Both the position numbers and the translations under genes were made by a program. Below the pieces are notes generated by a model. That model saw nothing but the letters and a program-made list of their open reading frames with translations, had not been told where the DNA came from and did no database searches. A stretch of 24,000 nt of DNA from Rhodococcus sp. Leaf278 (lineage in GTDB: Bacteria; Actinomycetota; Actinomycetes; Mycobacteriales; Mycobacteriaceae): positions 4,695-28,694 of the forward strand of contig NZ_LMRR01000017.1 in NCBI RefSeq assembly GCF_001426085.1. The letters are read 5' to 3'. Shown here in pieces: positions 4,877 to 19,558 of this stretch. Position 1 is the stretch's first letter. Every line of letters begins with the position of its first letter.

Positions 4877-6069
4877 CTGGCGGTACGAGCACGGACAGAA
4901 TTCTGGTTGTGCCACACCGAGAATGCGAGTGCGGTGGTTGCGAGATCGGCCGTTCGGGCAAGATCGAGTCCAGTGAGTTCGGTGAAGTCCTTGAGCCGTC
5001 GTCGAACAGTATTTCGGTGGCGGTAAGTGCGGCCGGCGATATCGGCAATGGTTCCGCCGTGCGCAACCAGATCCCCGACGGTCTCGAGAATGGCTGTGCG
5101 CTCGTATTCGGTCAGCGTGGTCAAGGGCCCGAAGGCTGCTTGGTAGACGGCGTCGGAGATCTCGGCGTTGCCTGCCGCGATCACTTGCAACCATGTGTCG
5201 CGGACATGCCTCACTCCTGGATCGCCGCGTCCGTCGACCGCTGTGCGGGCCAGTCTGATGGCACGAGGGACCCGCGTCAGCCCGTTCGCGTCGACTACCG
5301 CGCAAATGTGGCCACTCAGCGCGGTCAGGTGCGAGGTTACGTCCGGTCGATCGTCCGGTAGATGCACGATTGCGCGCAGTTCGTGTCCGTACCAACCGAA
5401 ATGGTGTGCAAGACCGGCAGAGTGCAATCGGTCGGTGCAGTCTGCGATGAGATCGGGGCGCGGAACAGGGAAACTGCCGACGATGCACAGATACGACCCC
5501 AGCACGGGCAGTCCGAGAAGCTGAGAAGCGTTGTCGACGGTCAATTCGTTCTGCGCTCCTTCGATGAGCAGTTGATCGAAGGCTGCCGACCGCAGTTCTT
5601 CCATGCCTTCTTGAGCTACCTGGTAACCCCGTACCACCTCTTCGGTGCTCGCTTCGACCGTCTCCCAAACCATTACGGAGGACAACTCGAGAAAGTCCAA
5701 ACGCTCCAGGGGTGAAAGTAGCCGCCCCTCCGATACCAACGCCCCCCACAGCATGCGCAGATCGATACGGAACGAGTGCAGAACCGTCGGCAGTGGTACG
5801 CGTTGTCGGGCCCGGAGGGTGCCCACGTCGAAAGCAGCCCCTGCCAGTGTCTCGGGCACCGGGCCGCCTACCAGTCGTGTCAGGGCCAACCTCAACGTGC
5901 GGTCCATGTGATGACGGAGATCGTCTTTGCTCACCGGACCGCCGGTGTATCCAGGCTCGTCCCCGAGGGTGCGTTCGACGGCGAGGTCGGTCAGTTCGTC
6001 CAAGTGCAATGTAAGTACTTGCATCGCGGCGGCGCGTACCAGCCGAGCGGTGTGTGTCTCGGTGCTCAT
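4867..6069 (-). CDS. PucR/CdaR-family transcriptional regulator
   Basis: The C-terminal PucR-type HTH is TIADIAGRTYRHRNTVRRRLKDFTELTGLDL. The ATG start has a GAGGAG Shine-Dalgarno sequence 5 nt upstream on the minus strand. The gene is divergent from the 6309 operon, and its 3' end overlaps the convergent oxidoreductase gene by 10 nt. Confidence 0.85.
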   Translation of the reverse strand: MSTETHTARLVRAAAMQVLTLHLDELTDLAVERTLGDEPGYTGGPVSKDDLRHHMDRTLRLALTRLVGGPVPETLAGAAFDVGTLRARQRVPLPTVLHSFRIDLRMLWGALVSEGRLLSPLERLDFLELSSVMVWETVEASTEEVVRGYQVAQEGMEELRSAAFDQLLIEGAQNELTVDNASQLLGLPVLGSYLCIVGSFPVPRPDLIADCTDRLHSAGLAHHFGWYGHELRAIVHLPDDRPDVTSHLTALSGHICAVVDANGLTRVPRAIRLARTAVDGRGDPGVRHVRDTWLQVIAAGNAEISDAVYQAAFGPLTTLTEYERTAILETVGDLVAHGGTIADIAGRTYRHRNTVRRRLKDFTELTGLDLARTADLATTALAFSVWHNQNSVRARTASQT

Positions 6070-6160
6070 CTGTGCTCCTCGGTCGCGTCAGCACGTCCGA
6101 AACGTGGCGGCAACACGATGTTCTCGGGTCCGTGACGGGATCAGTGAAATCTGGACCACG

Positions 6161-6177
6161 TGGTGCAGTGTGCACCA
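6161..6177. promoter_or_regulatory. Candidate operator: perfect 7-bp inverted repeat TGGTGCA-gtg-TGCACCA
   Basis: Read directly in the 239-bp divergent intergenic region. It overlaps the palindrome CCACGTGG at 6156-6163. No binding data exist. Confidence 0.3.
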
Positions 6178-6195
6178 TATTCCTAGCTAACGCGC

Positions 6196-6213
6196 GTCAA
6201 TATTCGCATTGAC
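6196..6213. promoter_or_regulatory. Candidate operator: inverted repeat GTCAAT-attcgc-ATTGAC
   Basis: Perfect 6-bp arms with a 6-bp spacer, AT-rich relative to its surroundings, located between the PucR-family gene and the operon. Confidence 0.3.
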
Positions 6214-6275
6214 CTCAGCGTTTTGCGCCACTTCAATGATGTGTATCACTCACACACCGGCCGTTTTCACTCTCG

Positions 6276-6287
6276 CCACACGCGTGG
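6276..6287. promoter_or_regulatory. Candidate operator: imperfect palindrome CCACACGCGTGG
   Basis: A 12-bp palindrome with one mismatched pair. It shares CCAC...GTGG ends with the 6156-6163 palindrome and lies 22 nt upstream of ATG 6309. Confidence 0.2.
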
Positions 6288-6308
6288 TCCGAAAGGAAAA
6301 GTTCGACC

Positions 6309-9002
6309 ATGACCGACGCCCCGGCACGGCCCACCGACTCGCTCGCCGAATCGACAGCAACCCTCGAAGCGCTTCTGCGCGACGGCTATGGATTGACTGT
6401 GACGTCCATGAAATTTCTGGGTGGCGAGCTGGATCGCAACTACCGGGTCCGAACTCCGGATGCGACGTACCTCGCCAAATTTCAGCTGCGAGCAGCTGAC
6501 CGAGCCGAGCTGCAGTGGCAGGAAGATATCTTGCTGCACCTCGCGGAGCAGGATCTGCACGTACCTGTTCCAACCGTCGTGCGCACTGTGTCCGGTGCCC
6601 CGAACCTCGCGGTCGACTCCGGTCCCGAGCTCGGAACGCTTCGCGTATTCGAGTGGGTGCACGGCACCGAGCTGGCCAAAGTTGCCGAGCACACCGATGT
6701 GCTGCTCACCGAGCTCGGCTCCACCGCCGCTCACATCACTGCGGCCTTGGACGGCTTCACTGCCTCCGACCTCCTCCCGACGCACCACTGGGACGTGACG
6801 AATTCTCGGTCCGCAATCGAGTCCTGCATCGCTGATGATCCCGGCCTGGCCGACCTGGAGTACGTGCGCACCGTCCTTGCGTGGTTCGACTCGGTCGAGC
6901 CGCGTCTGCCGAGTTTGCCGACCGCAGTGGTCCACCACGACCTGAACGACAACAACGTTTTGGTCAGCGTCGATGGGGACGACCAACACGTGTCCGGAGT
7001 GCTCGATTTCAACGATGCTTTACGCAGTGCCCGAGTTGCCGAACTCGCTGTAGCGGGGGCTTACGCAATGCTGCGTAAGTCCGATCCGCTCGGTGCTCTC
7101 GGCCTCGTGGTTGCGGGATACAACGACGTCTCGTCCCTGACGGACGACGAGATCGACGTCGTATTTCCACTCTCCGCTGCACGACTGTGTGTGCAGGTCC
7201 TGACCTGGACGAGCCGTGGTCGTGTCGACCCCACCGCGTACGGACGCATGCGAATGCAGTACACCCTGCCCACTCTTCTTGCAGTCGCGCGCCTGGACCC
7301 CACGGTGGCGTCGGCGCATCTGCGCTCGGTGTGCGGTCGAGTCGCGTCGACGGCGACCGACGCCGCCCGATATTTCGTTGCGAACGCAACGGCTGTGACG
7401 ATTCTGGGTGAGTCCCGGACGTCTTCAACGGGCGAGAACGCCGATATTCCTGTTCGACCCGCTGTGGGCGAACCCGCTACTTACTCACCGCACTTGGCGG
7501 TGCATCAGCACCGGTCGGATATCTGGCGACCGGACATCGGAGAGCCCGAGACCGTGTCACTCGGCTCCACGTTCTGGCTGGCCGACAGCACCGTGCTGTG
7601 CACTCCTCTCGAGGGCCGCGTTGTCGAGATCGAGCCCGTTGTCATCGAACACGGCGGTGTCGGTGGTGCACCGTTGGCGTATTCGGTGTGGTCCGGTGTG
7701 CGGCCGCTGGTAGGTGTCGGTGAAAGTCTGGCGGCGGGCGAGCCTCTTGGGGAGACAATCGACCTGCACTCCTCGGGGGCTCCCACCCTGCGTGTGCAGA
7801 TCGTCGCCACACACGATCTCGCCCTGCGGATGCCGTCATACGTGTCGGCAACGGATGCGGCGTACTGGGCGCACGTGTGCATCGACCCCGCACCGTGGTT
7901 CGACAGGACTCGGTCCGAGAACTCCGACGAGGGCTCCGACGTCTCCGCTTTCGTGCGGGGTCAAGGTGTCTGGTTGCACGACAACCGCGGTGTGCGTTAT
8001 CTGGACGCACGATCGGAGGGGGGCGTCCACGTAGCGCACGGCGACCGGCGCATCGTCGCTGCGGCCAATCGGCAGATGCTCTCTCTCGACGTAGCGAGCG
8101 ATGTCACGGTGGCGAGTCGACTTCTGACCCGGCGAATCCTGTCCACGATGCCCGAAAGCTTGGACACCGTGCTGTTCACCGACACTGCTGACGAAGCACT
8201 GGGCCTGGCCGAACGGTTGGCGAGTCGAGTTACGGGGCGCGCCTCGACTACACGACCGAACGAACACCCGACGGCCGAATTCGACCGGTCGGCTCTGCCG
8301 GCCGCAGTGATCCTGGAAGCCGTCGTAGCCGACGGCGTGCATCCGACGTCGCACGAATTCTGTGTATCCGCCTGTGCCGGTGCGAACGCCGCAGGCAGTG
8401 TGGTGATCGTCGACGAGACCACGAGCGGCCCGGGTCGAAGCGGAACTCACCTGTGGCAGTTCGACGCGTTGGGCATCGTTCCCGACATCGTCGTGCTCGG
8501 CCGCAGGTTGGCGAACGGACACCCGATTGCCGCCGTGGTGACCAACTCGGAGATCGCGCACAACAGTGGGGTCGACGTCGCCCGCTACAACGCCAACCCA
8601 GTCCCCGCTGCCATCGCCGCAACGACACTCGACATCATCGAGGCAGACGGCCTGATGCAACGCGCACATGCGGTCGGAGCTTATCTACGGACCGAGTTGA
8701 CGGCTCTCGCATCGGATGTCTCAGCGGTGTCCGACGTGCGTGGTTGGGGCTTGATGGCCGGAATGGAGTTGAGCGGTGGGTCGATGACGAGCGTCGCTGC
8801 CGCGAGGTACGCCCGCGCAGTGCGCCGCCGCTTGGCGCGACACAGTGTGTTGATCGGACAGTCGGGCAAGGGGGACAACGTTCTCACCGTCGACCCACCG
8901 ATGACGTTCTCGCACTCCGACGTCGATCTTCTCGTCACTCGCCTCGCCGACGTCTTCACCATGGCGGACATCCGTCCCGCCGACACCGACAGCTCATCGT
9001 AG
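6309..9002 (+). CDS. Three-module fusion protein: APH-fold (hydroxylysine-kinase/homoserine-kinase-II-like) kinase, degenerate M23/LytM-like domain, and class-III aminotransferase-like domain lacking the PLP lysine
   Basis: Kinase module (~6309-7330): Brenner motif HHDLNDNN (6933-6956) and DFND (7005-7016) are both intact. Middle module (~7520-7850): the G..V..G..LG pattern resembles an M23 barrel but has no HxxxD or HxH motifs. C-terminal module (~7949-8999): it aligns colinearly with the aminotransferase at 16485-17807. Shared blocks include VRGxGVxLxD, PDxVVLG, NP, DVRGxGL and NVL..PPMTF. Confidence 0.85.
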   Translation: MTDAPARPTDSLAESTATLEALLRDGYGLTVTSMKFLGGELDRNYRVRTPDATYLAKFQLRAADRAELQWQEDILLHLAEQDLHVPVPTVVRTVSGAPNLAVDSGPELGTLRVFEWVHGTELAKVAEHTDVLLTELGSTAAHITAALDGFTASDLLPTHHWDVTNSRSAIESCIADDPGLADLEYVRTVLAWFDSVEPRLPSLPTAVVHHDLNDNNVLVSVDGDDQHVSGVLDFNDALRSARVAELAVAGAYAMLRKSDPLGALGLVVAGYNDVSSLTDDEIDVVFPLSAARLCVQVLTWTSRGRVDPTAYGRMRMQYTLPTLLAVARLDPTVASAHLRSVCGRVASTATDAARYFVANATAVTILGESRTSSTGENADIPVRPAVGEPATYSPHLAVHQHRSDIWRPDIGEPETVSLGSTFWLADSTVLCTPLEGRVVEIEPVVIEHGGVGGAPLAYSVWSGVRPLVGVGESLAAGEPLGETIDLHSSGAPTLRVQIVATHDLALRMPSYVSATDAAYWAHVCIDPAPWFDRTRSENSDEGSDVSAFVRGQGVWLHDNRGVRYLDARSEGGVHVAHGDRRIVAAANRQMLSLDVASDVTVASRLLTRRILSTMPESLDTVLFTDTADEALGLAERLASRVTGRASTTRPNEHPTAEFDRSALPAAVILEAVVADGVHPTSHEFCVSACAGANAAGSVVIVDETTSGPGRSGTHLWQFDALGIVPDIVVLGRRLANGHPIAAVVTNSEIAHNSGVDVARYNANPVPAAIAATTLDIIEADGLMQRAHAVGAYLRTELTALASDVSAVSDVRGWGLMAGMELSGGSMTSVAAARYARAVRRRLARHSVLIGQSGKGDNVLTVDPPMTFSHSDVDLLVTRLADVFTMADIRPADTDSSS

Positions 9003-9011
9003 GGACAGGAC

Positions 9012-10481
9012 ATGACACACATACATATCGACAACATCAGCAAGCGGTTCGGTGCAACCGCAGCCTTGTCCGAGGTGTCCTTGGCCGTCGATGCCGGTGA
9101 GGTGCACGGACTTCTGGGTGAGAACGGAGCGGGGAAGTCGACTCTGATGAAAGTGCTGTCGGGCATCGTCGTGCCCGACAGTGGGTCCGTCACCATCGCA
9201 GGCAAGCCCCTGACTCTGGGTTCACCGCAGGCATCGCGAAACATCGGCCTGGCGATGGCCTACCAAGAGCTCAGCTCACCCGCCAACATCACGGTCGCAA
9301 CCAAGTTGTGTCTGCCGTCTTTGCCGACTCGATTCGGTTTCACGGTGTCGCAGCGCGAACTCGTCGCCAGAGCGGTTGATCGCCTGCAGCAGTGGGAGGC
9401 AGGACATCTCGATCCCACTGCGACCATGGGCGAGCTGAGCCTGGCCGCTCGACAGGAGGTCGAGATAGTTGCTGCCCTGTCCGGTGCGCCGCGACTGCTT
9501 GTTCTGGACGAGCCGACCGCAGCTCTCCCCGACCCGTCTTGGCTCTTTCGTCAGCTCGAAAGCATCACTGCCACAGGAACTTCGGTGATCTACATCAGTC
9601 ACAAACTGAACGAGATCGGGACCATCTGCTCGCGGGGAACAGTCCTTCGTAGCGGACGAGCAGTGGGGCAGTTCGGCCGGAACGAACTGTCCGAGAACGA
9701 ATTGGTCGAGCTCATGATCGGACGGTCGTTCGACCACGCTTTTCCGGCCAAGGGCACGGCCGAGGTTGCGCAACCAGTACTCGAAGTCCGAAACCTCACG
9801 GTCGGCAGCCTCACTGACGTATCCCTGCAGGTCGCTGCCGGCGAGGTTGTCGGTGTCGCCGGACTCGAAGGCCAAGGTCAACGCGATCTCTTCTACACGC
9901 TGGCCGGCGAACTGTCCCCCGAATCCGGTTCGGTGACGGTCTCCGACTCGAACGGGGGCGTGGATTTCGCGCTGGTGCCCGAGGAGCGCAAGACGGAAGC
10001 ACTGTTCCTGGAGATGCGGTCGGATTTCAACCTGACTCTGCCTTTGTCGGGCAGCTTCGCCACTGCTTCGGTCATCTCCACCAGACGCCGACGCGACGTC
10101 GCCCGCTCGTTGGCTGCACAGATCAACCTCCCCGAGGCGATGCTGGAACGCACCGTATCGAATCTGTCGGGCGGCAACCAACAGAAGATCGTGTTCGGAC
10201 GCGCGCTCGCACAATCGCCACGCTGTCTTCTTCTCTTCGACCCGACCCGCGGTGTCGATGCCGCCACGAAATTGGAGATCTACAGGATGACACGTGATTT
10301 CGCGGCTGCCGGGCATGCCGTACTGGTCTACTCCACAGAGATACCCGAGCTGGTCGGACTGTGTGATCGTGTGTGTTCGCTCTACGACGGCCGAATTGTC
10401 GCCGAACACTCCGCAGGCGACCTCGACGATGCATCGGTGTTGCGCGCAATTCTGGGCCGCACCCCGGAGCTGGCACGATGA
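9012..10481 (+). CDS. ABC transporter ATP-binding protein, tandem-NBD CUT2 (RbsA/MglA-like) type
   Basis: NBD1 has Walker A GENGAGKST, a CUT2-style signature LSLAARQEVEI and Walker B LLVLDEPTA. NBD2 has LSGGNQQK and LLLFDPTRGVD. The length is 489 aa. Confidence 0.9.
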   Translation: MTHIHIDNISKRFGATAALSEVSLAVDAGEVHGLLGENGAGKSTLMKVLSGIVVPDSGSVTIAGKPLTLGSPQASRNIGLAMAYQELSSPANITVATKLCLPSLPTRFGFTVSQRELVARAVDRLQQWEAGHLDPTATMGELSLAARQEVEIVAALSGAPRLLVLDEPTAALPDPSWLFRQLESITATGTSVIYISHKLNEIGTICSRGTVLRSGRAVGQFGRNELSENELVELMIGRSFDHAFPAKGTAEVAQPVLEVRNLTVGSLTDVSLQVAAGEVVGVAGLEGQGQRDLFYTLAGELSPESGSVTVSDSNGGVDFALVPEERKTEALFLEMRSDFNLTLPLSGSFATASVISTRRRRDVARSLAAQINLPEAMLERTVSNLSGGNQQKIVFGRALAQSPRCLLLFDPTRGVDAATKLEIYRMTRDFAAAGHAVLVYSTEIPELVGLCDRVCSLYDGRIVAEHSAGDLDDASVLRAILGRTPELAR

Positions 10482-11479
10482 CTCTCCTGAATTCACTGAC
10501 AAGGCGAAGCTACGGCAGCCGCAAGGAAACTCTCGTCGCACTGGCCATCTTCGCAGCGTGCTACGGAGCGGTGCTGTTCGTGAATCCGTACGAGCGAAAT
10601 GCCTACGCCTTCAACAACTACGTCGTGCTATTGACCCCGTTGGCGCTTGCCGCCGCAGGAACCACCCTTGTGCTGTTGGTAGGCGGATTCGATCTGTCGG
10701 TGGCCGGAACGGTGAGCTTGTCCAACGTCGTCGCGGCGACCACCATGGCCACGAATCCGGATCTGTTGTGGCTCGTCATCATCGGGGTCGTCGTTCTCGG
10801 CCTGGCGGTAGGCCTGATCAACGGACTCTTGATCGTCCGCCTGGGACTGCAGTCGTTGGCGGTGACACTCGGAGCGTTCATCGTGCTGACCGGAATCGCC
10901 CTCATCGTGCTACCGGCACCAGGCGGTGAGGTCCCCGAGTCGTACGCTCTGGCCTTGACCGATCCGCTCGGGCCCGTGCCGGTTGCGCTGATCGCCCTCG
11001 TGTTGCTGGCCGCCGGCTGGTGGTGGTTCAGCACTTCAACGGCAGGCATATCGGCGTTTGCCATCGGGGCAGATCGTCAGGCTGCGCGCATGTCGGGGAT
11101 CCGCGTCGACGCGGTCGAGATTCTGAGTTACACCCTTGCCGGAGGGTTGTATTCGGCTGCCGGCTTGTATCTGACTGCCATCACTGCCTCGGGGGACCCG
11201 AATTCCGGTCGCCCGTTCCTGCTGACGTGCTTTGCCGCAATGGCGCTCGGCCTCGTCGGTTTTCGCGGCGGGTCGGGAAGCGTTGTTGCCGCGGTGTTCG
11301 GTGCGGCGAGCCTCATCGCGCTCCCGAAGTTACTGTTCGCTGCGGGCGTCGAAGACTTCTGGTCCGGTGCCGTGCAGGGCGCCGTCATTCTCATCGCTCT
11401 TGCTCTCCCACTGGCCGCAACGTATTACACCAACGTGCGCACGGCGCGAACGCGTCTCGCGGAAGGGACTATTCGATGA
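10478..11479 (+). CDS. ABC transporter permease (RbsC/BPD_transp_2-like)
   Basis: The protein is polytopic and hydrophobic, with FDLSVAG and GIRVD motifs typical of CUT2 permeases. ATG 10478 overlaps the upstream stop (ATGA). The ORF-track start at 10373 is an out-of-context extension. Confidence 0.85.
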   Translation: MTLLNSLTRRSYGSRKETLVALAIFAACYGAVLFVNPYERNAYAFNNYVVLLTPLALAAAGTTLVLLVGGFDLSVAGTVSLSNVVAATTMATNPDLLWLVIIGVVVLGLAVGLINGLLIVRLGLQSLAVTLGAFIVLTGIALIVLPAPGGEVPESYALALTDPLGPVPVALIALVLLAAGWWWFSTSTAGISAFAIGADRQAARMSGIRVDAVEILSYTLAGGLYSAAGLYLTAITASGDPNSGRPFLLTCFAAMALGLVGFRGGSGSVVAAVFGAASLIALPKLLFAAGVEDFWSGAVQGAVILIALALPLAATYYTNVRTARTRLAEGTIR

Positions 11480-12483
11480 GTGCGAGTCCGACTCTTGTTC
11501 CCGATCAAGCATCGAGCAGGGTGAGTTCGCCGGGCCGGGCCGGTGTGCCGCAGTGGATGCGAAGTCAGACCTTCGTGATCTGGGCGCTGCTGATCGTGTG
11601 TTTCCCGTTGTCGCGGTTGGTGAGTGACAGTTTCCCGTCCGTCAATCTCGTCGTCAACGTGTTGGTGCTCGGCTTGTTCCTTGCGGTGATCGCCTTCGGC
11701 CAGGGTTTGGTGATCTTGTCCGGTGGCATCGATCTGTCCGTGGCTTCACAGGTTGCCCTCGGTGCCTTCGTCACGGGGTCGCTGTGTGACAACGGAGTGC
11801 CGGTGCTGGGCGCGGCTCTCGCGGCCCTCGCCCTGTGTGGAGTGGTCGGTGCCGCCAATGGTCTTCTCGTCACCCGGCTCGGGTTTCCCCCGTTCATCGT
11901 GACGCTGGCTGTCGGGACCGTGCTCGCGTCCGTGCTGCTCGGAATGGCGCGTGGTGCCCCGGCGCAATCGTCCCCGGCCGGTTTGAGCGAGCTGTTCGCT
12001 CGATCGACGACGTTGTTGGGAATTCCGGTCGCGATCTGGCTCTTCGTCGTGATTGCCGCGGTCGGTCTCGTGGTGCAACACCGCACGACCCTCGGCATGC
12101 GTACCTACGCACTGGGGAACAGTGTTGCCGCATCGAAGAACGCACGTGTGCGTGTCCACCGCGCGACCGTCTCGGTCTACAGCGTGTCCGGTGTGGCCTA
12201 CGGCTTGGGCGGCGTGATGCTACTGGGGTACTCGTCAGGAGCGGATCTCAACGTCGGTGAGCCGTGGTTGCTGCCGAGTATCGCGGCCGTGGTGGTGGGT
12301 GGATCCTCCATCCGAGGAGGTGCCGGTTCGTTCAGCGGCACGCTGGCAGGAGCATTGCTGCTCACACTGATCGGCATCGACATCAGCGCCACCGGACTTG
12401 CCGAGGGGTACAAGCAGATCGTGTACGGACTGGTGATCGTCCTCGCGTTGCTCGGAGCGAGACTCGCCGGGCGGCGTCAATGA
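11476..12483 (+). CDS. ABC transporter permease, second subunit (RbsC-like)
   Basis: The protein is hydrophobic, with GGIDLSVAS and NARVRV motifs. ATG 11476 overlaps the upstream stop (ATGA). The ORF-track start at 11020 lies inside the previous gene. Confidence 0.85.
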   Translation: MSASPTLVPDQASSRVSSPGRAGVPQWMRSQTFVIWALLIVCFPLSRLVSDSFPSVNLVVNVLVLGLFLAVIAFGQGLVILSGGIDLSVASQVALGAFVTGSLCDNGVPVLGAALAALALCGVVGAANGLLVTRLGFPPFIVTLAVGTVLASVLLGMARGAPAQSSPAGLSELFARSTTLLGIPVAIWLFVVIAAVGLVVQHRTTLGMRTYALGNSVAASKNARVRVHRATVSVYSVSGVAYGLGGVMLLGYSSGADLNVGEPWLLPSIAAVVVGGSSIRGGAGSFSGTLAGALLLTLIGIDISATGLAEGYKQIVYGLVIVLALLGARLAGRRQ

Positions 12484-12523
12484 GTACCACTCGATTTCGG
12501 ACTCAACAGAACAGGCACTCACG

Positions 12524-13756
12524 ATGAGACGCATCCTCACGAGAAGACACCTCGCGGCGCTCGCCGCACTGGCCGCGATCGTTCCGTTCAGCGCGTGCTC
12601 GGCTCCGGAGACCGGTAAGGACAAAATTTATCTCGACTTGAGCTACAGCGGGAACAATTGGCAGGACGAAGCCGCCAATCTCGCGCTGTCCGTGGCTCGT
12701 TCCGCGCCGTATGCCGATCGATACAGCGTCACGAAGCAGATTTCGGGAACCGACATCCAGAAACAAATTTCGGATGTGCAGTCCATGATCGCTGCCGAGG
12801 CGAAGCTGGTGGTTCTGTACCCGCTGTCACCGACCGCTCTGAACCCGACCATTCGCCAAGGGTGTGAGCGCGGTGTCACCTTCGTCGTCTACGACTCCAC
12901 CGTGCGAGAGCCGTGCGCATACAACGTCGCGTTCATCACCGGCGCCCGCGCGGACAAGCCGCAGGACGCGTTCTTCGGAGCTCAGACTGCCCAAGCCCTC
13001 GTCGACCTACTCGGGGGCAAGGGAAGAATTTTCATGAATCGCGGCGTTGCCGGCACCTCGACCGATCAAGTCCACTACGACACCGCCAAGGCGGTGTTCG
13101 ATCGGTACCCCGACATCGACGTGGTGTCCGAGTATTACGGCAAATGGGACAGTGCGGTCAGTCAACAAGAAACTGCCAAAGCATTGGCGGCGCACCCCGA
13201 CGTCGACGGGGTGTGGTCGCAGGACGGCGAAGTAGGAGTTGTCAAAGCACTGCAGGCGGCGGGGTTGGAGATTCCCGTGACCGGCGAGAACGGCAACTAT
13301 TTCCGCAAAATGCTGAGCGAAGGGTGGCCGGGAGTGTCTTCCGGTTCACCACCGGCCCAGGCAGCGGTCGCGATGCAAGTGGGTCTTCGTATCCTCGAGA
13401 ACGGGCCCGACTCGGTACCGCACGACATCGAAATGCCGCTACCCTGGGTGACCACGGACACGGCTAAAGCCTGTCCAGGAAGCGAATTCGTCGACGGATG
13501 CAATTTCTTCCCGAACGAGTCCGACACGTTCGTCACCGAGATTTTCCAGCGGGAGCTGTTGCCGCAGAGCTCCCTCACAGCTGCGCTGACCGGGCAGCCG
13601 ATGGAGGGCCTCGAACCGCTCGGCGACATTTCGAAATTTGCGCAACCGGAGTCTCGTCGGATGTACACCCGAAAATCGTGTGATGACGGCTGGACGGTGG
13701 GAACCGTGACCGACGGCCAGAACCCGTCCGGTTTGACCGGCTGCGTTCGATCCTGA
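12524..13756 (+). CDS. ABC transporter substrate-binding lipoprotein, periplasmic-binding-protein type I (sugar-type) with a Cys-containing C-terminal extension
   Basis: The signal peptide has the lipobox AAIVPFSAC. The body resembles RbsB/Peripla_BP_4 (VVLYPLSP...VTFVVYDS...GVWSQDGEVGVVKALQAAG). About 94 extra residues follow from Cys317 (13472 onward). Confidence 0.85.
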   Translation: MRRILTRRHLAALAALAAIVPFSACSAPETGKDKIYLDLSYSGNNWQDEAANLALSVARSAPYADRYSVTKQISGTDIQKQISDVQSMIAAEAKLVVLYPLSPTALNPTIRQGCERGVTFVVYDSTVREPCAYNVAFITGARADKPQDAFFGAQTAQALVDLLGGKGRIFMNRGVAGTSTDQVHYDTAKAVFDRYPDIDVVSEYYGKWDSAVSQQETAKALAAHPDVDGVWSQDGEVGVVKALQAAGLEIPVTGENGNYFRKMLSEGWPGVSSGSPPAQAAVAMQVGLRILENGPDSVPHDIEMPLPWVTTDTAKACPGSEFVDGCNFFPNESDTFVTEIFQRELLPQSSLTAALTGQPMEGLEPLGDISKFAQPESRRMYTRKSCDDGWTVGTVTDGQNPSGLTGCVRS

Positions 13757-13791
13757 ACCGCTCCACCCGAACGTCCGTGAAAGGGCAGCAA

Positions 13792-14577
13792 ATGAACAAG
13801 CGAATCGACATCAATGCAGATATCGGTGAAAGCTTCGGACGCTGGAACCTCGGTTCCGACAGCGAACTGATGCAGCTGGTCACGTCGGTCAACGTGGCGT
13901 GCGGTTGGCACGCCGGTGACCCGTCCACGATGCGCGAGGCAGTGGAAAGCGGTGTCCGTGCAGGCGTGAACATCGGTGCCCATCCTGGGTTTCCGGATTT
14001 GCTGGGTTTCGGACGTCGCGCAATGGCGATCTCCGACAGTGACGCCGTCGACTACACGCTCTATCAGGTCGGTGCGCTGATGGGAGTCGCCTCGCGAGCC
14101 GGCGCGACACTGACCCATGTGAAACCGCACGGTGCGTTCTACGGGACAATCGCTCGCAGTGCGGATCGTGCTGTTGCGATCGCCACGGCACTTCAAACTC
14201 TCCAGCTCGGGCTACCGATGTTGATCGCTCCGGGCGTCGGGTTCGCTGCGATCCGCGCTGCCGGACTTCCCGCCGTTGCCGACAACGCGTGCGATCTCGA
14301 TTTCGACGAGGACGGCAACAACATCATCGAGCCCAGGCCGGGTGAACGGGACCCCGAAGTAGTTGCAGCGCAGGCTCTTCGCATGGCACACGGCACGGTG
14401 CTGACCGTTTCCGGTCGGGAGATCGACATGCCTGTGGACTCTGTGTGCGTACACGGGGATCGACCCAATGTCGTGGAGGTCGCGCGAGCCGTGAAGCGCG
14501 CACTCACCGGTGCCGGAGTCGAGGTCCGATCTGCGGTCGATCGGACCGGAACAGCAACCACACGAGGGGCCTCGTGA
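13792..14577 (+). CDS. pxpA: LamB/YcsF-family lactamase subunit (5-oxoprolinase subunit A-like)
   Basis: IDINADIGESFGRW...VNVACGWHAGDP...GAHPGFPD...HVKPHGA are the family hallmarks. ATG 13792 has AAGGG 7 nt upstream and is preferred to GTG 13777. Confidence 0.85.
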   Translation: MNKRIDINADIGESFGRWNLGSDSELMQLVTSVNVACGWHAGDPSTMREAVESGVRAGVNIGAHPGFPDLLGFGRRAMAISDSDAVDYTLYQVGALMGVASRAGATLTHVKPHGAFYGTIARSADRAVAIATALQTLQLGLPMLIAPGVGFAAIRAAGLPAVADNACDLDFDEDGNNIIEPRPGERDPEVVAAQALRMAHGTVLTVSGREIDMPVDSVCVHGDRPNVVEVARAVKRALTGAGVEVRSAVDRTGTATTRGAS

Positions 14578-15464
14578 TCCAACTGAACGACGGGTCTCGT
14601 CTCTCGTTCGGTGGTGAGGAGTTCGTCTTCGTCGAACTCACCGAACACATGTCGCTGTCGGGCGCACTCCGGATACAGGCCATCACCGACTCCCTGACGA
14701 CTGCCGCGATCGAAGGCGTGTTGGACATCTGCCCGTCGAACGCAAGTTACATGCTCCGCGTCGATCCCGACATTTGTGATCCACGATCGCTCGTCGATCC
14801 TCTGCGTGACCTACACCGACGCTTCGAGGACACCTCCGACGTGGTGCTCGAGACCGAGATCCTCGAAGTGCCGGTGCTGTACGACGACCCGTGGAGTACC
14901 GAAACAGTCATGCGATTCCGAGATCGACATCAGTCTCGAACAGAGACCGACCTCGAATACATCACGCGCATCAACGGTTTCGATACCACAGCCGATTTCG
15001 TGGTGGCTCACGCGCGCAATCCCTACATCGTGACGTTCATGTGCTTCGTCCCCGGGAACGCCGAGTCGATGCAACTGGTGAACCACGACATGCAGCTGCA
15101 GGCACCGAAGTACATCAGGCCACGCACCGACACACCCGAACGCGCCCTCGGGCACGGAGGTGCGTTCGCGACGATCTACCCGGCACGCGGAGCGGGCGGC
15201 TACCAACTGGTCGGCCGCGCAGCTACGCCGGTGTTCGACCTGTCGCAATCGCTCCCGGATTTCGCCGAGAACCCGGTTCTCGCCCGGGCCGGCATGCTGG
15301 TGAAATACCGCCCGATCGTCCGAGACGAGTACGACGACATCAGACAAGAAGTCGACGCCTGCTCGTATCGCTATCTACGGCGGCCGGTGTCGTTCTCGTT
15401 GGCCGAGTTCACCCAGGATCCGCTGCTGTACAACCGAACTCTGCTCCAGGAGCTGAACTCGTGA
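14574..15464 (+). CDS. pxpB: PxpB/KipI-like subunit (CT_C_D, allophanate hydrolase subunit 1 family)
   Basis: Motifs seen: EVPVLYDD..., FVPGNAE..., PRTDTPERALGHGGAFATIYPARGAGGYQLVGR. The GTG 14574 start overlaps the pxpA stop (GTGA). At 296 aa it is longer than typical PxpB. Confidence 0.8.
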   Translation: MIQLNDGSRLSFGGEEFVFVELTEHMSLSGALRIQAITDSLTTAAIEGVLDICPSNASYMLRVDPDICDPRSLVDPLRDLHRRFEDTSDVVLETEILEVPVLYDDPWSTETVMRFRDRHQSRTETDLEYITRINGFDTTADFVVAHARNPYIVTFMCFVPGNAESMQLVNHDMQLQAPKYIRPRTDTPERALGHGGAFATIYPARGAGGYQLVGRAATPVFDLSQSLPDFAENPVLARAGMLVKYRPIVRDEYDDIRQEVDACSYRYLRRPVSFSLAEFTQDPLLYNRTLLQELNS

Positions 15465-16435
15465 TCGATGTCGGCGCGCCGGGTGTGCAGACCCTCGTCC
15501 AGGACTCCGGGCGCAGTGGACATTTCGCTATCGGACTCCCACCATCGGGCCCCATGGACCTGTGGTCTCACCACGCGGCCAACGCGTTGGTCGGCAACTC
15601 ACCGGACGCCGCGACCTTGGAATCGGTGTACGTGGGTCCCGAACTGCATTTCCGTCGCGACACCGTCGTCGCAGTGACCGGGGCCGATGTCGATCTGCGG
15701 GTGAACGGCAGGTCCATGCCGACGTGGACGACTCTGCCCGTCACCGCCGGTTCCGTCCTGACCGTCGGCTCCGCCCTCCGTGGTGCCCGCAGCTATGTCG
15801 CGGTGCGCGGCGGCATCGGAACGACACCGGTCATGGGTAGCCGATCGACGTATCTGTCCTCGGCTATCGGCGGCCTCGACGGGCGCGCACTTCGTGCCGG
15901 TGATGTCCTCCCCAGCGGAGTCGACCTCGGTCCGTACCCCAAGCTCGGATTTTCGGTCGAACACGACGACCGACCCGATCTCGGCCGAACACAGGACGTA
16001 CGAGTGGTACTCGGCCTGTGCAGCTACCGCTTCACGCCCGAGAGCTTGGAGCGCATGTTCACATCGCCCTTCACGGTCGGAACAGAAGCGAATCGCGTCG
16101 GATACCGTCTCAGCGGTCCGCAGTTGGACTTCGTGGAACGAGAACCACCATTCGGTGCCGGCGACAACCCGAGCAACGTGGTCGATTTGGGATACCCCGT
16201 GGGTTCCATTCAAGTACCGGGCGGCGAGGAACTGATCTGCCTGCTTCGGGACGGTGTCACCGGAGGCGGATACGCCACGGTCGGCACGATCATCAACTGC
16301 GACATAGACCGCCTCGCGCAGATGAAAGCACCGGATTGCGTGCGCCTTTCGAAGATCGGCATAGACGATGCCCTACAGGCACGACGAGAACGCGGTGCAC
16401 GAATCGAGCGGCTCTATCACGCTGCCCGAGACTGA
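15461..16435 (+). CDS. pxpC: PxpC/KipA-like subunit (CT_A_B, allophanate hydrolase subunit 2 family)
   Basis: The N-terminus VIDVGAPGVQTLVQDSGRSGHFAIGLPPSGPMDLWSHHAANALVGN is the family signature. The GTG 15461 start overlaps the pxpB stop (GTGA). The ORF-track start at 14891 is an out-of-frame overlap artefact. Confidence 0.8.
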   Translation: MIDVGAPGVQTLVQDSGRSGHFAIGLPPSGPMDLWSHHAANALVGNSPDAATLESVYVGPELHFRRDTVVAVTGADVDLRVNGRSMPTWTTLPVTAGSVLTVGSALRGARSYVAVRGGIGTTPVMGSRSTYLSSAIGGLDGRALRAGDVLPSGVDLGPYPKLGFSVEHDDRPDLGRTQDVRVVLGLCSYRFTPESLERMFTSPFTVGTEANRVGYRLSGPQLDFVEREPPFGAGDNPSNVVDLGYPVGSIQVPGGEELICLLRDGVTGGGYATVGTIINCDIDRLAQMKAPDCVRLSKIGIDDALQARRERGARIERLYHAARD

Positions 16436-16484
16436 CCGAATCATGCAGGACGTCGCACCTGCGGAAATCGACGAGGAAGAGAAG

Positions 16485-17807
16485 ATGAATCCCAAACAGA
16501 TGTACATGGCCAACGCCTACGACGGGTCCAACCTGGCGTCGCTGGATCCGAACACGCGGGCGCTGATCGAGCGCCGCGACGCCGTACTGGGCACGAGCTA
16601 TCGTTTGTTCTACCGCGATCCTGTTGTCCCGGTGAGAGGTTCGGGTGTATACCTCTACGACGCAGACGGACGTGAATACCTCGACGTCTACAACAACGTT
16701 CCCGCGATCGGACACAGTCACCCCCATGTTCAGCGGCTCGTCTCCGAACAACTCGGTGTACTGAACACGCACACGCGCTACCTGACGGAACCTGTGGTCG
16801 CCTACTCCGAGCGACTGCTCGCGCTGTTCCCCCAAGAGTTGTCGAAGGTCGTATACACCTGTACCGGTAGCGAATCGGTCGACCTCGCGTTACGCATGGC
16901 TCGATACCGCACCGGCGCGACCGGAGTGATCTGCACGAGACACGCCTACCACGGTACGACCGCCGCGGCAGCAGAAGTGTCACCCAGCCTGGGGCCGAAC
17001 AACCTGATCGGGCCCAACGTGGTGCTGGTCGATGCCCCGGATCTCCTGCGCGACAACCGCGAGACCGCCGCGGCGGACTTCGCTTCCCGTGTCCGCCAGG
17101 CGGTGGACGAGTTGAACGCCCGCGGACTCGGTATCGCCGCGATGATCGTCGATTCCATCCTCTCCAGCGACGGAGTGCAGTCGCACCCAACCGATCTTCT
17201 TCGCGAGGCGGTCGACGTTGTCCACGAAGCCGGTGGTCTTTGGATCGCCGACGAGGTACAGCCGGGCTTCGGCAGACTCGGGGTGCAGTGGTGGGGATTC
17301 GCTCGCCACGGCATCGCACCCGACATGGTCGTGTTGGGAAAGCCCATGGGGAACGGAGTCCCCGTCGCCGCGGTCGTAGGAACCGAGGACGCGATGGACA
17401 GCTTCGGTCGTGACATCCGGTACTTCAACACCTTCGGTGGAAACCCCGTCAGCATCGCGGCCGCCACAGCGGTCCTCGATGTCATCGAACAAGAGTCGTT
17501 GTTGGACAACGCTCGTCGCGTCGGCGAGCACCTCGATACCGGGCTCCGAAACATCGCAGCACGCCATCGGGCCCTCGGTGATGTCCGTGGGTGTGGGTTG
17601 TTCGTTGCAGCCGAGTTCGTCACCGAGGACGGTCTCACCCCCGACCCTGCTATCGCCGCCTTCGTCGTCGACGAGCTACGCACGCGCCGCATCCTGATCA
17701 GCGCTTCAGGAAAACACGCGAACGTACTGAAGATCAGGCCTCCGATGACGTTCGGGCTCAGCGACGCCGATCGATTCCTGACCGAACTGGACGACATCCT
17801 GGGATAG
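16485..17807 (+). CDS. Class-III PLP-dependent enzyme of the AGXT2L (phosphoethanolamine / 5-phosphohydroxylysine phospho-lyase-like) subgroup
   Basis: The catalytic set is intact: YNNVPAIGHSHP, TGSES, HAYHGTT, ADEVQPGFGRLG, VVLGKPMGNG (Lys codon 17340-17342), FNTFGGNP and NVLKIRPPMTF. ATG 16485 has GAGGAAG upstream. ATG 16443, 7 nt after the pxpC stop, is an alternative start. Confidence 0.85.
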   Translation: MNPKQMYMANAYDGSNLASLDPNTRALIERRDAVLGTSYRLFYRDPVVPVRGSGVYLYDADGREYLDVYNNVPAIGHSHPHVQRLVSEQLGVLNTHTRYLTEPVVAYSERLLALFPQELSKVVYTCTGSESVDLALRMARYRTGATGVICTRHAYHGTTAAAAEVSPSLGPNNLIGPNVVLVDAPDLLRDNRETAAADFASRVRQAVDELNARGLGIAAMIVDSILSSDGVQSHPTDLLREAVDVVHEAGGLWIADEVQPGFGRLGVQWWGFARHGIAPDMVVLGKPMGNGVPVAAVVGTEDAMDSFGRDIRYFNTFGGNPVSIAAATAVLDVIEQESLLDNARRVGEHLDTGLRNIAARHRALGDVRGCGLFVAAEFVTEDGLTPDPAIAAFVVDELRTRRILISASGKHANVLKIRPPMTFGLSDADRFLTELDDILG

Positions 17808-17897
17808 AGATCGAGTGATCACAACCGTTAAAACCCGTTGCGGCCCAAAGGCGCGGTCCGACAGTGGTCACGGCCGTCGAAGGCGTCCGGAACCGCT

Positions 17898-18611
17898 TCA
17901 CCTACCGAGTTCGTTCTGCAGACGCCGGGCGGCCGATTCGAGGGCAGGAACTCGCCCACCTCGTGGCGCGCGCCGCGCGAACAGAACGAACGCCGCGGTG
18001 GCCCCAGAGGTGGGGACGGCGATCGCGGCGATGTCGGGATCGGCGAGTCCGTCGCTTCGAGCCAATCGATCTCGACGAATTCTCGGGAGCTCCTGCTGAA
18101 ACTGCGCGGCTCCTTCCGGGTCGTCTCCACGTAGTCCGCTCAGGATCTTTTCACGTGCGGGCTCATCGGCGCTGGCGAGCAGGAGTCGTCCCGCCGCAGT
18201 GCGTAATGTGGGTCGCGGCCGGTGGTCGTCGGCCACTATCTGGATGTGGTCGGGTGCGCGCGGCCCTGCGTGGTCGAGGTAGTAGATCTCGTGCCCCACC
18301 AGGGCAGCGATACCGATCGGTGCCCTGGCCACTTCGCTCAGGCGGACGAGCTCGGCGTGGTCCACCCCTGACGCGGTCGCCGATCCGGCGATCGTTGCCA
18401 GCATGTGCGCGCGCAGGCCGAGGGCATACCGCTTGCCGGCCATCGTCAAGTATCCGAGTGCACACAATTCCTTGACGAGGTCCTGCGTCGAACTCACCGG
18501 TGCCTCGATCGAACGCGCGAGCGCGGACAGTGTGGGCGGTTCGTCGCAGCGCGCGACGTACTCGAGAATTCGGTCCGCACGCATCAAGGTCCGATGACCC
18601 TCGTTGCTCAT
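17898..18611 (-). CDS. IclR-family transcriptional regulator
   Basis: The N-terminal winged HTH is RADRILEYVARCDEPPTLSALARSIEAPVSSTQDLVKELCALGYL, followed by an IclR effector-domain-like C-terminus. The start is ATG 18611 or GTG 18620. Confidence 0.85.
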   Translation of the reverse strand: MSNEGHRTLMRADRILEYVARCDEPPTLSALARSIEAPVSSTQDLVKELCALGYLTMAGKRYALGLRAHMLATIAGSATASGVDHAELVRLSEVARAPIGIAALVGHEIYYLDHAGPRAPDHIQIVADDHRPRPTLRTAAGRLLLASADEPAREKILSGLRGDDPEGAAQFQQELPRIRRDRLARSDGLADPDIAAIAVPTSGATAAFVLFARRAPRGGRVPALESAARRLQNELGR

Positions 18612-18622
18612 TCGCGTCACAT

Positions 18623-18636
18623 TACGGATATACGTA
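18623..18636. promoter_or_regulatory. AT-rich imperfect palindrome TACGGATATACGTA immediately upstream of the IclR gene
   Basis: A 14-bp palindrome with one mismatched pair, 3-12 nt upstream of the candidate start codons. It is unusually AT-rich for this genome. Any function is unproven. Confidence 0.2.
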
Positions 18637-18712
18637 CACGCGCGACGAAATCTCCGGCCGAGGCGACGGCCGCGTTCACCGACATCGGAAGGCGTACTAC
18701 GAGGGTCGGTGA

Positions 18713-19558
18713 CTACCGGTCGATCGGGTGCCGGTTCAAGAAATCCGCGATGAGCGCGTTCACCTCGTCCGGCATTTCGGCTGCCAACAGATGTGCCGCG
18801 TTCTCGATGACGACGAACTCGCTGTCGGTGATTGCGGCCGCCATGCGAGAAACCTCGTCGACGGGGAATGTCGTGTCTTCGCGGCCGGCGAGCACCAGAA
18901 CGGGCGCGGTGATCGAGGCGAGCAGGCGGTGTTGATCCGGCCGACGCGAGACGACGCTCTCCCCGGCCAGGCCGACCGATCTCACGTCATGGCTGTGAAC
19001 GAGTGCGGAGATACGTTCCACCAGTTCGGGTTTGTCTCGCCGTGCGGTCGGACCGAGAAACATCCGCAGGACGCTGCGGTCGACGAGCGGCCGTGACACA
19101 CGCAATTCGAAGGCTGCGGGCAGACGGGCGCTCAGCCACCCCAGTCGGGCCTGCGCCATGACCTTCACCCGTTGCAGTGGCGGTGCCACCGACGCCGTAC
19201 CGTTCATCAGCACTGCGCAGCCGACCCGGTCCGGATAAGTGGCGGTGATGGTCGCGCCGATCATCGCGCCCCATGAGTTGCCGACGAGGTGAGCCCATTC
19301 GAGACCGAGCGCGTCCAGGATCTCGACATAGCAGCGCGCACACTCCGCGAAATCGAAGTGACGCGTCACAGGCTCGCTGCGCCCATGTCCAGGCGGATCG
19401 ATCGCGATTGTCGTGTAACGGTCTGCAAAGTACTCGACCTGCCGGTCCCACAGGGAGTGGTCGGTGAGCATGCTCGGCCACAACATCATCGGGTCGCCCG
19501 TACCCGACACTTGCGCGTGAACAGTCCCCAGCGTCGTGGGGATGAAGTGATCGGTCAT
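18713..19558 (-). CDS. Alpha/beta-fold hydrolase
   Basis: The nucleophile elbow is GNSWG, with HGRSEP after strand 3 and a C-terminal His (AAHLLAAE). GGAGG lies 6 nt upstream of the ATG. Confidence 0.85.
   Translation of the reverse strand: MTDHFIPTTLGTVHAQVSGTGDPMMLWPSMLTDHSLWDRQVEYFADRYTTIAIDPPGHGRSEPVTRHFDFAECARCYVEILDALGLEWAHLVGNSWGAMIGATITATYPDRVGCAVLMNGTASVAPPLQRVKVMAQARLGWLSARLPAAFELRVSRPLVDRSVLRMFLGPTARRDKPELVERISALVHSHDVRSVGLAGESVVSRRPDQHRLLASITAPVLVLAGREDTTFPVDEVSRMAAAITDSEFVVIENAAHLLAAEMPDEVNALIADFLNRHPIDR

Follow-up and report, generated by a model that had tools for sequence, protein, structure and literature searches.

The subject of this report is a nine-gene operon in a 24,000-nucleotide stretch of DNA from Rhodococcus sp. 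Leaf278 (the window, by which we mean the whole stretch analysed, with positions counted from its first letter). The operon is conserved but uncharacterised, and every one of its parts comes from a known family. Based on its gene content, the reading that we favour, and hold tentatively, is that of a PucR-controlled catabolic operon for a neutral, sugar-like cyclic amide, the likeliest being a gamma- or delta-lactam that is hydroxylated and in which a CH2 beside a CH-OH carries the ring nitrogen. An ATP-binding cassette (ABC) system of the CUT2 type would take up the hydroxylated lactam, and a PxpABC paralogue would open its ring in an ATP-driven step, giving an omega-amino, vicinal-hydroxy acid. 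The kinase domain of a fusion protein would then phosphorylate the hydroxyl beside the terminal amine, and a stand-alone AGXT2L-type enzyme dependent on pyridoxal phosphate (PLP) would remove phosphate and ammonia to leave a semialdehyde acid. Oxidation of the semialdehyde would fall to an SSADH-like aldehyde dehydrogenase (ALDH), whose gene Gordonia and Glaciibacter have within the cluster and Rhodococcus presumably has at another place in its genome. By way of example only, 4-hydroxy- or 3,4-dihydroxy-pyrrolidin-2-one would be converted to succinate or malate semialdehyde. The features to which the argument refers are the following.

4867-6069, minus strand: PucR-type transcriptional regulator, divergent from the operon (Pfam HTH_30, E 2.5e-12, and GGDEF_2)
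6070-6308, no strand: divergent control region of 239 bp with imperfect inverted repeats
6206-6237, plus strand: promoter-like element, GCATTGAC at 6206-6213 (contains TTGACC), a 17-nt spacer and TTCAAT at 6232-6237
6309-7418, plus strand: APH kinase domain of the fusion protein (residues 1-370), predicted amino-alcohol kinase (Pfam APH, 87.5 bits)
7419-7943, plus strand: middle region of the fusion protein (residues 371-545), no Pfam match at E <= 0.1
7944-9002, plus strand: degenerate class-III aminotransferase-like domain of the fusion protein, pseudoenzyme (Pfam Aminotran_3, profile positions 192-402 only)
9012-10481, plus strand: CUT2-type ABC ATPase with tandem nucleotide-binding domains (two Pfam ABC_tran stretches)
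10478-11479, plus strand: ABC permease 1 (BPD_transp_2; ATGA overlap with the ATPase gene)
11476-12483, plus strand: ABC permease 2 (BPD_transp_2; ATGA overlap)
12524-13756, plus strand: type-I solute-binding lipoprotein (Peripla_BP_4; lipobox Cys25 at 12596-12598)
13792-14577, plus strand: PxpA / LamB-YcsF subunit, predicted ring-opening hydrolase (LamB_YcsF, E 1e-75)
14574-15464, plus strand: PxpB-like subunit (CT_C_D, E 2.4e-32)
15461-16435, plus strand: PxpC-like subunit (CT_A_B, E 7.6e-83)
16485-17807, plus strand: stand-alone AGXT2L-type PLP enzyme, predicted phospho-lyase (Aminotran_3, E 3.3e-71; catalytic Lys286 at 17340-17342)

The nine genes all lie on the plus strand between 6309 and 17807, in DNA of high GC content (about 0.61-0.67 along the length of the window). 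A gap of 9 nt at 9002/9012 is followed by ATGA overlaps at positions 10478 and 11476, by gaps of 40 nt (12483/12524) and 35 nt (13756/13792), by GTGA overlaps at positions 14574 and 15461, and by a last junction of 7 nt if the final gene starts at the ATG at 16443 or 49 nt if it starts at the ATG at 16485, which matches the residue at which its orthologues begin. An earlier note on this DNA, made from the letters alone, had described the same tightly packed operon, and every junction that it listed agrees with ours; its family assignments are likewise borne out by Pfam and NCBIfam for each operon protein. The database entries for window proteins, KQU52227-KQU52232, carry generic names. No terminator-like site was found on the plus strand within the operon, and we place the end of the operon at 17807 because in Rhodococcus sp. 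14-2483-1-1 (L093; numbers of this form are the locus ids of the compared clusters) the orthologue of window 22712-23821 directly follows the aminotransferase gene.

For the survey of related loci, one genome per species was scanned with an alignment of binding-protein homologues, and tblastn was run with all window proteins. Clusters of the same order, here called type B, were found in at least 18 genomes of Mycobacteriales and Micrococcales, comprising several Mycolicibacterium, Gordonia soli, Rhodococcus, two Arthrobacter, Microbacterium, Glaciibacter and Cryobacterium, with M. frederiksbergense, M. arabiense and Rhodococcus sp. 14-2483-1-1 also among them. The genes for PucR, the kinase, the four ABC proteins (as counted by gene), PxpB and PxpC keep one order in L001-L012, L014, L016, L088 and L093, and a live aminotransferase and PxpA are present too, except that the aminotransferase gene is inverted in L011, that the live aminotransferase is the fused domain in L012 and L014, and that L008 has no PxpA. 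Because this gene order is shared so widely, the arrangement is not a matter of chance, and the gene-neighbourhood check that the earlier note had proposed for the association of kinase, AGXT2L-type enzyme, PxpABC and CUT2 system comes out in favour of its conservation.

Two further cluster types separate the parts of the operon from one another. Type A clusters, in Streptomyces and Mycolicibacterium sp. YH-1, consist of PucR, APH kinase, aminotransferase, a zinc-dependent alcohol dehydrogenase (Zn-ADH), an APC permease with low scores on GabP and ethanolamine permease models, and an ALDH, and R. qingshengii (L086) has a shorter set of PucR, kinase and aminotransferase; none of the type A clusters has PxpABC. 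The PucR, kinase and aminotransferase of the window are 52-68% identical to their type A counterparts (close kinase homologues, 52-60%), and the kinases and aminotransferases of types A and B intermix in trees, following taxonomy. Since PucR, kinase, aminotransferase and a promoter-like element are common to both, type B looks like the type A end-pathway fitted with a different uptake and pre-processing module, and by the same sequence comparison PucR, kinase and predicted lyase are a portable module shared with the permease-type clusters. Type C clusters encode TetR, SDR, APH kinase, aminotransferase, PxpA, PxpB and PxpC, and were found in R. qingshengii (L090 1971-9475, many assemblies), where an MFS transporter follows, and in Amycolatopsis jejuensis (L091 2239-7990), where an APC permease lies upstream. 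Their aminotransferase is 52% identical to that of the window and their kinase only 28%. That the trio of kinase, phospho-lyase-type aminotransferase and PxpABC recurs here with another transporter and another regulator marks it as a conserved core, and supports a functional link among the three, with the transporter and the regulator exchangeable.

The extended type B clusters bear on the product. An SSADH-subfamily ALDH is encoded in those of G. soli and Glaciibacter (533-582 bits), joined in Glaciibacter by a tartrate / D-malate dehydrogenase equivalog (480 bits against a cut-off of 470). Both enzymes would fit a C4-type semialdehyde acid, and the malate route would agree with the latter.

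The transporter has the complete set of CUT2 parts, that is, a tandem ATPase, two BPD_transp_2 permeases and a Peripla_BP_4 lipoprotein with lipobox Cys25. The best NCBIfam models for the ATPase, AraG, XylG and RbsA, all score below their cut-offs (AraG, 344.7 vs 689), and none of the substrate-specific CUT2 equivalogs (ribose, xylose, arabinose, allose, AI-2, B6) was reached (ABC_ATP_B6, 283 vs 670; RhaS, 52 vs 342). The type B binding proteins form a single clade. In a sequence alignment, not a structure, with the E. coli ribose-binding protein (RBP), whose sequence was checked only by its known residue numbers (11 of 11 known ligand residues stood at their published numbers), 10 of the 11 ligand positions align to a residue and seven of these are invariant across the family (N13-N44, F15-W46, D89-D124, R141-H184, F164-W208, D215-E255 and Q235-S275); RBP F16 falls in a gap, and RBP N64 corresponds to a Tyr/Phe position without a clean split between groups. 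Among the aligned positions only two separate type B from the other proteins. RBP R90 corresponds to Ser125 (12896-12898) in 16/16 type B proteins and elsewhere mostly to Gly or Ala (G/A/S), and RBP N190 corresponds to Asp234 (13223-13225) in 16/16 type B proteins and to Ala, Leu or Tyr elsewhere. A paralogue of the binding protein in the same genome, 71% identical, has Gly and Ala at positions 125 and 234. From the gain of Ser125 and Asp234 beside the conserved ligand positions of the family, we infer that the type B ligand has the sugar-like core of the family plus an extra hydrogen-bond donor or cationic group, probably a nitrogen.

The nearest relatives of the binding protein accompany a LacI regulator, a metallo-beta-lactamase (MBL)-fold hydrolase, a HisD-like dehydrogenase, an SDR and a 3HCDH-family enzyme, and the Proteobacteria loci of relatives outside type B sometimes have a PdxA-like enzyme and a DUF1537-type acid-sugar kinase. 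The family matches of the MBL-fold hydrolase beside the paralogue are to lactonases only. By analogy, the paralogous system and type B may run in parallel, with a lactonase acting on a lactone in the one and an ATP-dependent lactamase acting on a lactam in the other, and the parallel would extend to the oxidation of a terminal alcohol by the HisD-like enzyme of the sister system as against removal of a terminal amine beside a hydroxyl by the type B kinase and lyase. 4-Hydroxy-2-pyrrolidinone itself has served as an analogue of D-xylonolactone isomers in the crystal structure of a lactonase (PMC8820113). The locus of the paralogue, on another contig of Rhodococcus sp. Leaf278 (L089 5031-20611), combines the CUT2 system with the MBL hydrolase, LacI, an MFS transporter, the HisD-like enzyme, SDR and 3HCDH, followed by an HpcH/HpaI aldolase, a tartrate-dehydrogenase-like Iso_dh (53% identical to its Glaciibacter type B counterpart) and an FAH-family enzyme; the whole has the look of a so far uncharacterised pathway for a sugar lactone or an acid sugar. 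The occurrence of an MBL hydrolase, an SDR and a 3HCDH beside transporters outside type B is reminiscent of pyridoxine catabolism, and import or degradation of vitamin B6 was considered and rejected on low scores for 4-pyridoxolactonase (36.8 vs 325), FHMPC dehydrogenase (157 vs 500), pyridoxal 4-dehydrogenase (146.7 vs 325) and, again, ABC_ATP_B6 (283 vs 670). As a separate observation, proteins of this binding-protein family are about 100 residues longer than classical CUT2 binding proteins (window 13450-13756, residues about 310-410), and their C-terminal extension has invariant C317, C326 and C386, besides C114 and C131.

All three Pfam subunit families of PxpABC are encoded together in the window, with GTGA overlaps coupling pxpA to pxpB and pxpB to pxpC, and PxpA passes its subfamily model (NF003814, 268.9 vs a cut-off of 226). 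The opening of a lactam by this set is modelled on precedents for gamma-lactams, namely 5-oxoproline and butyrolactam. In C. glutamicum, pxpTABC opens 5-oxoproline with the NRAMP-like transporter PxpT as partner (PMC13274462), and in P. putida the PxpABC paralogue PP_2920-2922 is needed for the use of butyrolactam, 5-oxoproline being handled by PP_4575-7 (bioRxiv 10.1101/2021.12.09.472016). The usual 5-oxoprolinase partner, the NRAMP-like PxpT/YcsG, is not encoded here, where the CUT2 system stands instead.

Several points weigh against our preferred reading. The substrate class, the order of the steps and all of the chemistry are deduced from gene content, and the pocket comparison uses a sequence alignment and an RBP sequence checked only by its known residue numbers. 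The window encodes no ALDH. The ALDH subtype was rejected as a discriminator of the product, since type A and type B enzymes alike match SSADH models best. In Arthrobacter sp. GCM10027362 (L008 11221-11460) only about 240 nt separate the binding-protein gene from pxpB and pxpA is missing, while the related A. ginkgonis (L010) has retained it. PxpB fails the 5-oxoprolinase equivalog TIGR00370 (55.2 bits, cut-off 145.55) and scores higher, with 99.8 bits, on the urea carboxylase model TIGR02712, and PxpC fails the equivalog NF045499 (184.5 vs 500). The PxpABC lactamase of the earlier note is therefore upheld as regards its three coupled families and not as regards the status of PxpB and PxpC as 5-oxoprolinase equivalogs, both being below the cut-offs. 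Finally, four of the 18 type B clusters, those of G. soli, Microbacterium, Glaciibacter and Cryobacterium, include genes for biotin carboxylase (BC) and biotin carboxyl carrier protein (BCCP), and for that reason the chemistry may go beyond simple hydrolysis of a lactam.

These last findings lead to an alternative that we regard as possible but doubtful, in which PxpB and PxpC would be the carboxyltransferase (CT) of a biotin-dependent, urea-carboxylase-like amidolyase that N-carboxylates the nitrogen of an amide, a carbamate, a ureido group or a lactam. Hydrolysis of the bond thus activated would fall to PxpA and would free an amino alcohol or amino acid for the kinase and lyase. Some genomes supply BC and BCCP from within the cluster, and Rhodococcus would borrow them from a subunit of the AccA3 type. 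PxpB, like PxpC, is homologous to the CT domain of urea carboxylase; the best solved relatives of PxpC are CT domains of urea carboxylase/amidolyase (3VA7, 150 bits), then E. coli YbgK and then MSMEG_0435 (114 bits), and NCBI labels PxpC a 'biotin-dependent carboxyltransferase family protein'. The BCCP and BC genes are translationally coupled to the Pxp genes in L005, L011, L012 and L014, and the BC-linked PxpB and PxpC of G. soli are the closest orthologues outside Rhodococcus, at 74-77% identity to those of the window, with the type C proteins the next-closest relatives for PxpC (56-59%). Because PxpB and PxpC belong to a lineage linked to BC and BCCP, the ATP-dependent step may be biotin-mediated. 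The mycobacterial homologues MSMEG_0435-0436 bind the biotinylated BCCP of AccA3, with the biotin placed for carboxyl transfer, yet they showed no urea carboxylase activity and their authors favour a role as a regulator (PMC13012033). Moreover, BC and BCCP are absent from the window, from 14 of the 18 type B clusters and from the type C clusters, and a need for biotin is not reported for the characterised PxpABC enzymes. A PxpC homologue that is 53% identical occurs in Bacillus badius (L092 6093-14654) within a set in the order PxpB-PxpC-BCCP-BC-PxpA, that is, with the biotin genes between PxpC and PxpA. Immediately downstream of these five genes come CoxG and a molybdenum hydroxylase of three subunits (Fer2, MoCoBD, FAD_binding_5), which suggests a biotin-linked Pxp system in the catabolism of N-heterocycles.

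For a lactam substrate the biotin scheme overlaps with our preferred reading; for an acyclic amide or a urea derivative the two part ways. In the overlapping form, to which we give little credence for now, BC-BCCP would carboxylate biotin, PxpB and PxpC would pass the CO2 to the ring nitrogen, PxpA would hydrolyse the activated amide and the carbamate would lose CO2. Equally speculative is the supply of BC and BCCP in this form, which would be in cis in Gordonia and the Microbacteriaceae, with an AccA3-type subunit borrowed in Rhodococcus and Mycolicibacterium. Such a 'lactam amidolyase', if true, would be a new class of biotin-dependent reaction and part of a new catabolic route for amino-deoxy-aldonates, and it would give a catalytic rather than regulatory reason for the docking of MSMEG_0435-0436 on the BCCP of AccA3.

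Less probable still, and in our view unlikely, is that an open-chain amino-polyol or amino-aldonic acid is imported and goes straight to the kinase and lyase, PxpABC serving only to re-open a lactam that forms spontaneously. A damage-control function has been ascribed to 5-oxoprolinase and proposed for the lactamases of P. putida too (bioRxiv 10.1101/2021.12.09.472016), and Asp234 of the binding protein would suit a free ammonium group as well. However, the type A clusters, presumably for an open-chain compound, use an APC permease and no PxpABC, and the PxpABC genes of types B and C are tightly conserved together, with translational coupling.

The steps that our preferred reading places after ring opening depend on the identity of the stand-alone PLP enzyme, a class-III fold with its Schiff-base Lys286 present in VVLGKPMGNG. 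The closest solved proteins are the phospho-lyases A1RDF1 (5G4I, E 5.5e-100) and human ETNPPL (6TOR, E 6.1e-96), the next solved family being racemases (E 2.7e-59) and GABA transaminases following at about 1e-47; with about 40 orders of magnitude in E-value over the transaminases, we predict a phospho-lyase. That it is instead a true omega-transaminase acting on the ring-opened amino acid, as GABA transaminase does after the hydrolysis of butyrolactam, with the kinase employed elsewhere, for example in trapping the sugar-like substrate, strikes us as quite improbable. Class-III enzymes are mostly transaminases, and GABA transaminases are among the solved relatives, but the two phospho-lyases are far closer, an APH-type kinase accompanies this aminotransferase in every type A, B and C cluster examined, and Glaciibacter and Cryobacterium join the kinase and the live aminotransferase in one polypeptide.

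The kinase of the window is the N-terminal part of a protein of 897 residues that joins it to a class-III aminotransferase-like domain. Its catalytic motifs are intact (HHDLNDNN at 6933-6956, DFND at 7005-7016), the source databases call its homologues 'hydroxylysine kinase', and in 11 orthologous clusters it is a stand-alone gene product of about 350 residues without the fused PLP domain. A phmmer search found no solved relative of the kinase domain at E <= 0.01. Fusions of kinase and aminotransferase are known as the PRK06148 family, a 'hypothetical protein' model that is the only NCBIfam match of the window protein. The middle region, whose fold was sought in Pfam, gave no match at the threshold listed above.

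The fused PLP-like domain is a decaying pseudoenzyme. In the alignment, its Schiff-base Lys is replaced by Arg732 (8502-8504; VVLGRRLANG vs VVLGKPMGNG in the free enzyme), the PLP-binding core has lost about 50-60 residues, among them the HAYHGTT region, and DETT stands in place of DEVQ. The same position holds Ala in the fused domain of G. soli, where the deletions are even larger, and Glu in that of M. frederiksbergense, while in Glaciibacter and Cryobacterium the fused domain retains the Lys and there is no separate aminotransferase. A comparison of the window with a second Rhodococcus strain gives dN/dS values of 0.34 for the dead PLP domain and 0.24 for the middle region, as against 0.11 for the kinase, 0.08 for the free aminotransferase and 0.05-0.17 for the other operon genes. 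The loss of the Lys, the deletions in the core and the dN/dS of 0.34 together argue for relaxed selection. Two PLP enzymes of the phospho-lyase type had been claimed for the operon; the stand-alone one, with its catalytic Lys, meets that description and the fused one does not. Ranging from a live fusion, by way of a dead fusion accompanied by a stand-alone enzyme, to a kinase on its own, the clusters make a clear case of domain decay after functional replacement.

Other arrangements of these families were seen along the way. In R. qingshengii (L086 1161-8570), a gamma-glutamylation-type amine pathway is divergent from the PucR, APH and aminotransferase set, with genes for a glutamine-synthetase-like protein, Zn-ADH, ALDH, a reductive-aminase-like protein, a peptidase C26 and a flavin monooxygenase. 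Metagenome loci L084 and L085 (2436-12228) encode GntR, a GH42 beta-galactosidase, an SDR, a CUT1 ABC system, a GH63-like glucosidase, an APH kinase and a class-III aminotransferase, and it is pure conjecture that they could serve the catabolism of a glycosylated amino alcohol such as the glucosyl-galactosyl-hydroxylysine of collagen. A distant homologue, P0228, has Peptidase_M23 behind its kinase domain, and another metagenome locus (L083 1233-7922) encodes an APH-Peptidase_M23 fusion of 664 residues followed by a short class-III aminotransferase, with a radical-SAM/B12-binding protein, a bacterial microcompartment (BMC) shell protein and an RnfC-like protein as neighbours; it may be a microcompartment-linked amino-alcohol locus.

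It is very improbable that three modules without a shared pathway, namely an ordinary importer of sugars, a 5-oxoprolinase with a housekeeping role and a pathway for amino alcohols, are merely neighbours. The transporter does occur without these enzymes in L013, L015 and L017-L080, and the kinase and aminotransferase occur without Pxp in type A. In the window, however, the kinase and aminotransferase flank the other seven genes, and start and stop codons overlap at four junctions; two orders of Actinobacteria preserve the gene order; neither PxpB nor PxpC is a 5-oxoprolinase equivalog; true pxp operons carry the NRAMP-like PxpT; and the type B binding proteins are a distinct clade with pocket residues of their own.

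The operon is faced by the PucR gene, whose product scores 46.8 bits on HTH_30 (cut-off 27) and 23.9 bits on GGDEF_2, just below the cut-off of 24.5. Its identity to the regulators of L081, L086 and L087 (type A) and of L088 (type B) is 55-59%, the regulators being 54-71% identical across cluster types, and it has a negligible match to the PucR-family equivalogs of NCBIfam (PmfR, 21 bits vs a cut-off of 800). The divergent regulator and the 239-bp region reported in the earlier note are both as described; 'palindrome-rich' was an overstatement, as the region has three imperfect inverted repeats plus GTCAAT-N6-ATTGAC at 6196-6213, and the palindrome is not conserved. As a PucR operator the latter was rejected, being found only in the window and in none of 19 orthologous intergenic regions. 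Of 20 intergenic regions from types A and B, 17 have the element GCATTGAC, with at most one mismatch, at a distance of 86-113 nt upstream of the kinase start, and TTGAAT or TTCAAT follows about 17-18 nt past it in most of them. We consider the pair of GCATTGAC and TTCAAT a putative promoter; no sigma-70 consensus promoter was found, as expected for Actinobacteria.

Downstream of the operon, window 17823-22708 is a strain-specific insertion of 4.9 kb relative to Rhodococcus sp. 14-2483-1-1. On the minus strand it carries genes for an IclR regulator (17898-18620), an alpha/beta hydrolase (18713-19558), a second, unrelated APH-family kinase (about 19605-20660) and an SDR (20726-21493), and on the plus strand an AraC regulator (21621-22664).

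If our model holds, Actinobacteria of soil and leaves would have a route, so far undescribed, for drawing carbon and nitrogen from sugar look-alikes that contain nitrogen, for example hydroxylated lactams or oxidised compounds of the iminosugar type, and a large branch of the PxpABC / 'allophanate hydrolase subunit' family that lacks annotation would gain a role. The amino-alcohol kinase and phospho-lyase pair would then be a portable end-module that plugs into different uptake systems. The BC and BCCP genes within orthologous operons provide context for the role of the mycobacterial PxpB/C-like proteins with bound biotinylated BCCP (PMC13012033). NCBIfam (June 2026) holds no pathway-specific name for the operon, and the literature searched on the gene combination, on biotin-linked PxpABC and on the catabolism of GABOB (gamma-amino-beta-hydroxybutyrate) or hydroxypyrrolidinone gave none, in keeping with the statement of the earlier note that no characterised pathway was recognised.

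Each part of the operon can be set beside a known system. Human HYKK/PHYKPL and ETNPPL are reportedly amino-alcohol kinase/phospho-lyase pathways (attributed to Veiga-da-Cunha, 2012), and the Mycobacterium RMM aminopropanol pathway is a kinase plus phospho-lyase pathway as well. These, and Arthrobacter A1RDF1 (5G4I), similarly pair an APH-type kinase with an AGXT2L-type class-III PLP enzyme, but in the window an ABC importer and a PxpABC paralogue go with the pair, and the fused aminotransferase is inactive. Unlike the RMM pathway, neither the window nor the type B loci have a BMC-domain gene, and the window kinase is not of the RMM kinase type, as phmmer detects no solved relative. In C. glutamicum, GabR is a PucR-type activator that goes with gabTDP, likewise a PucR regulator beside an amine operon with a class-III PLP enzyme; type A adds the further likeness of an APC permease and an SSADH-like ALDH, and the difference lies in a kinase and lyase instead of a transaminase. 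With CUT2 importers (the M. smegmatis threitol/xylitol proteins 4RSM and 4RS3, E. coli RbsABC) the transporter shares its parts and the RBP-equivalent ligand positions, and it differs in a binding protein about 100 residues longer, with a Cys-containing C-terminal extension and with Ser125 and Asp234 in the predicted pocket. PxpB and PxpC are homologous to the CT domain of urea carboxylase/amidolyase and to MSMEG_0435-0436 (PMC13012033), with BC and BCCP in four orthologous operons, although the window has neither, LamB/PxpA replaces the allophanate hydrolase, and PxpC is distant from MSMEG_0435 (114 bits). The PxpABC 5-oxoprolinases (E. coli ybgJKL, B. subtilis, C. glutamicum pxpTABC; PMC13274462) have the same three subunit families, adjacent and translationally coupled, and open a gamma-lactam with ATP; the window has the order pxpA-pxpB-pxpC and, unlike those operons, places the Pxp genes between kinase and phospho-lyase, without PxpT, while some orthologous clusters have BC and BCCP as well. 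For the proposed role the best precedent is PP_2920-2922 of P. putida KT2440, likened by function and not by sequence, which differs in belonging to another phylum, in the transamination of its product GABA and in having no kinase/lyase pair, and which is likewise a PxpABC paralogue for a lactam other than 5-oxoproline, with a regulator of its own.

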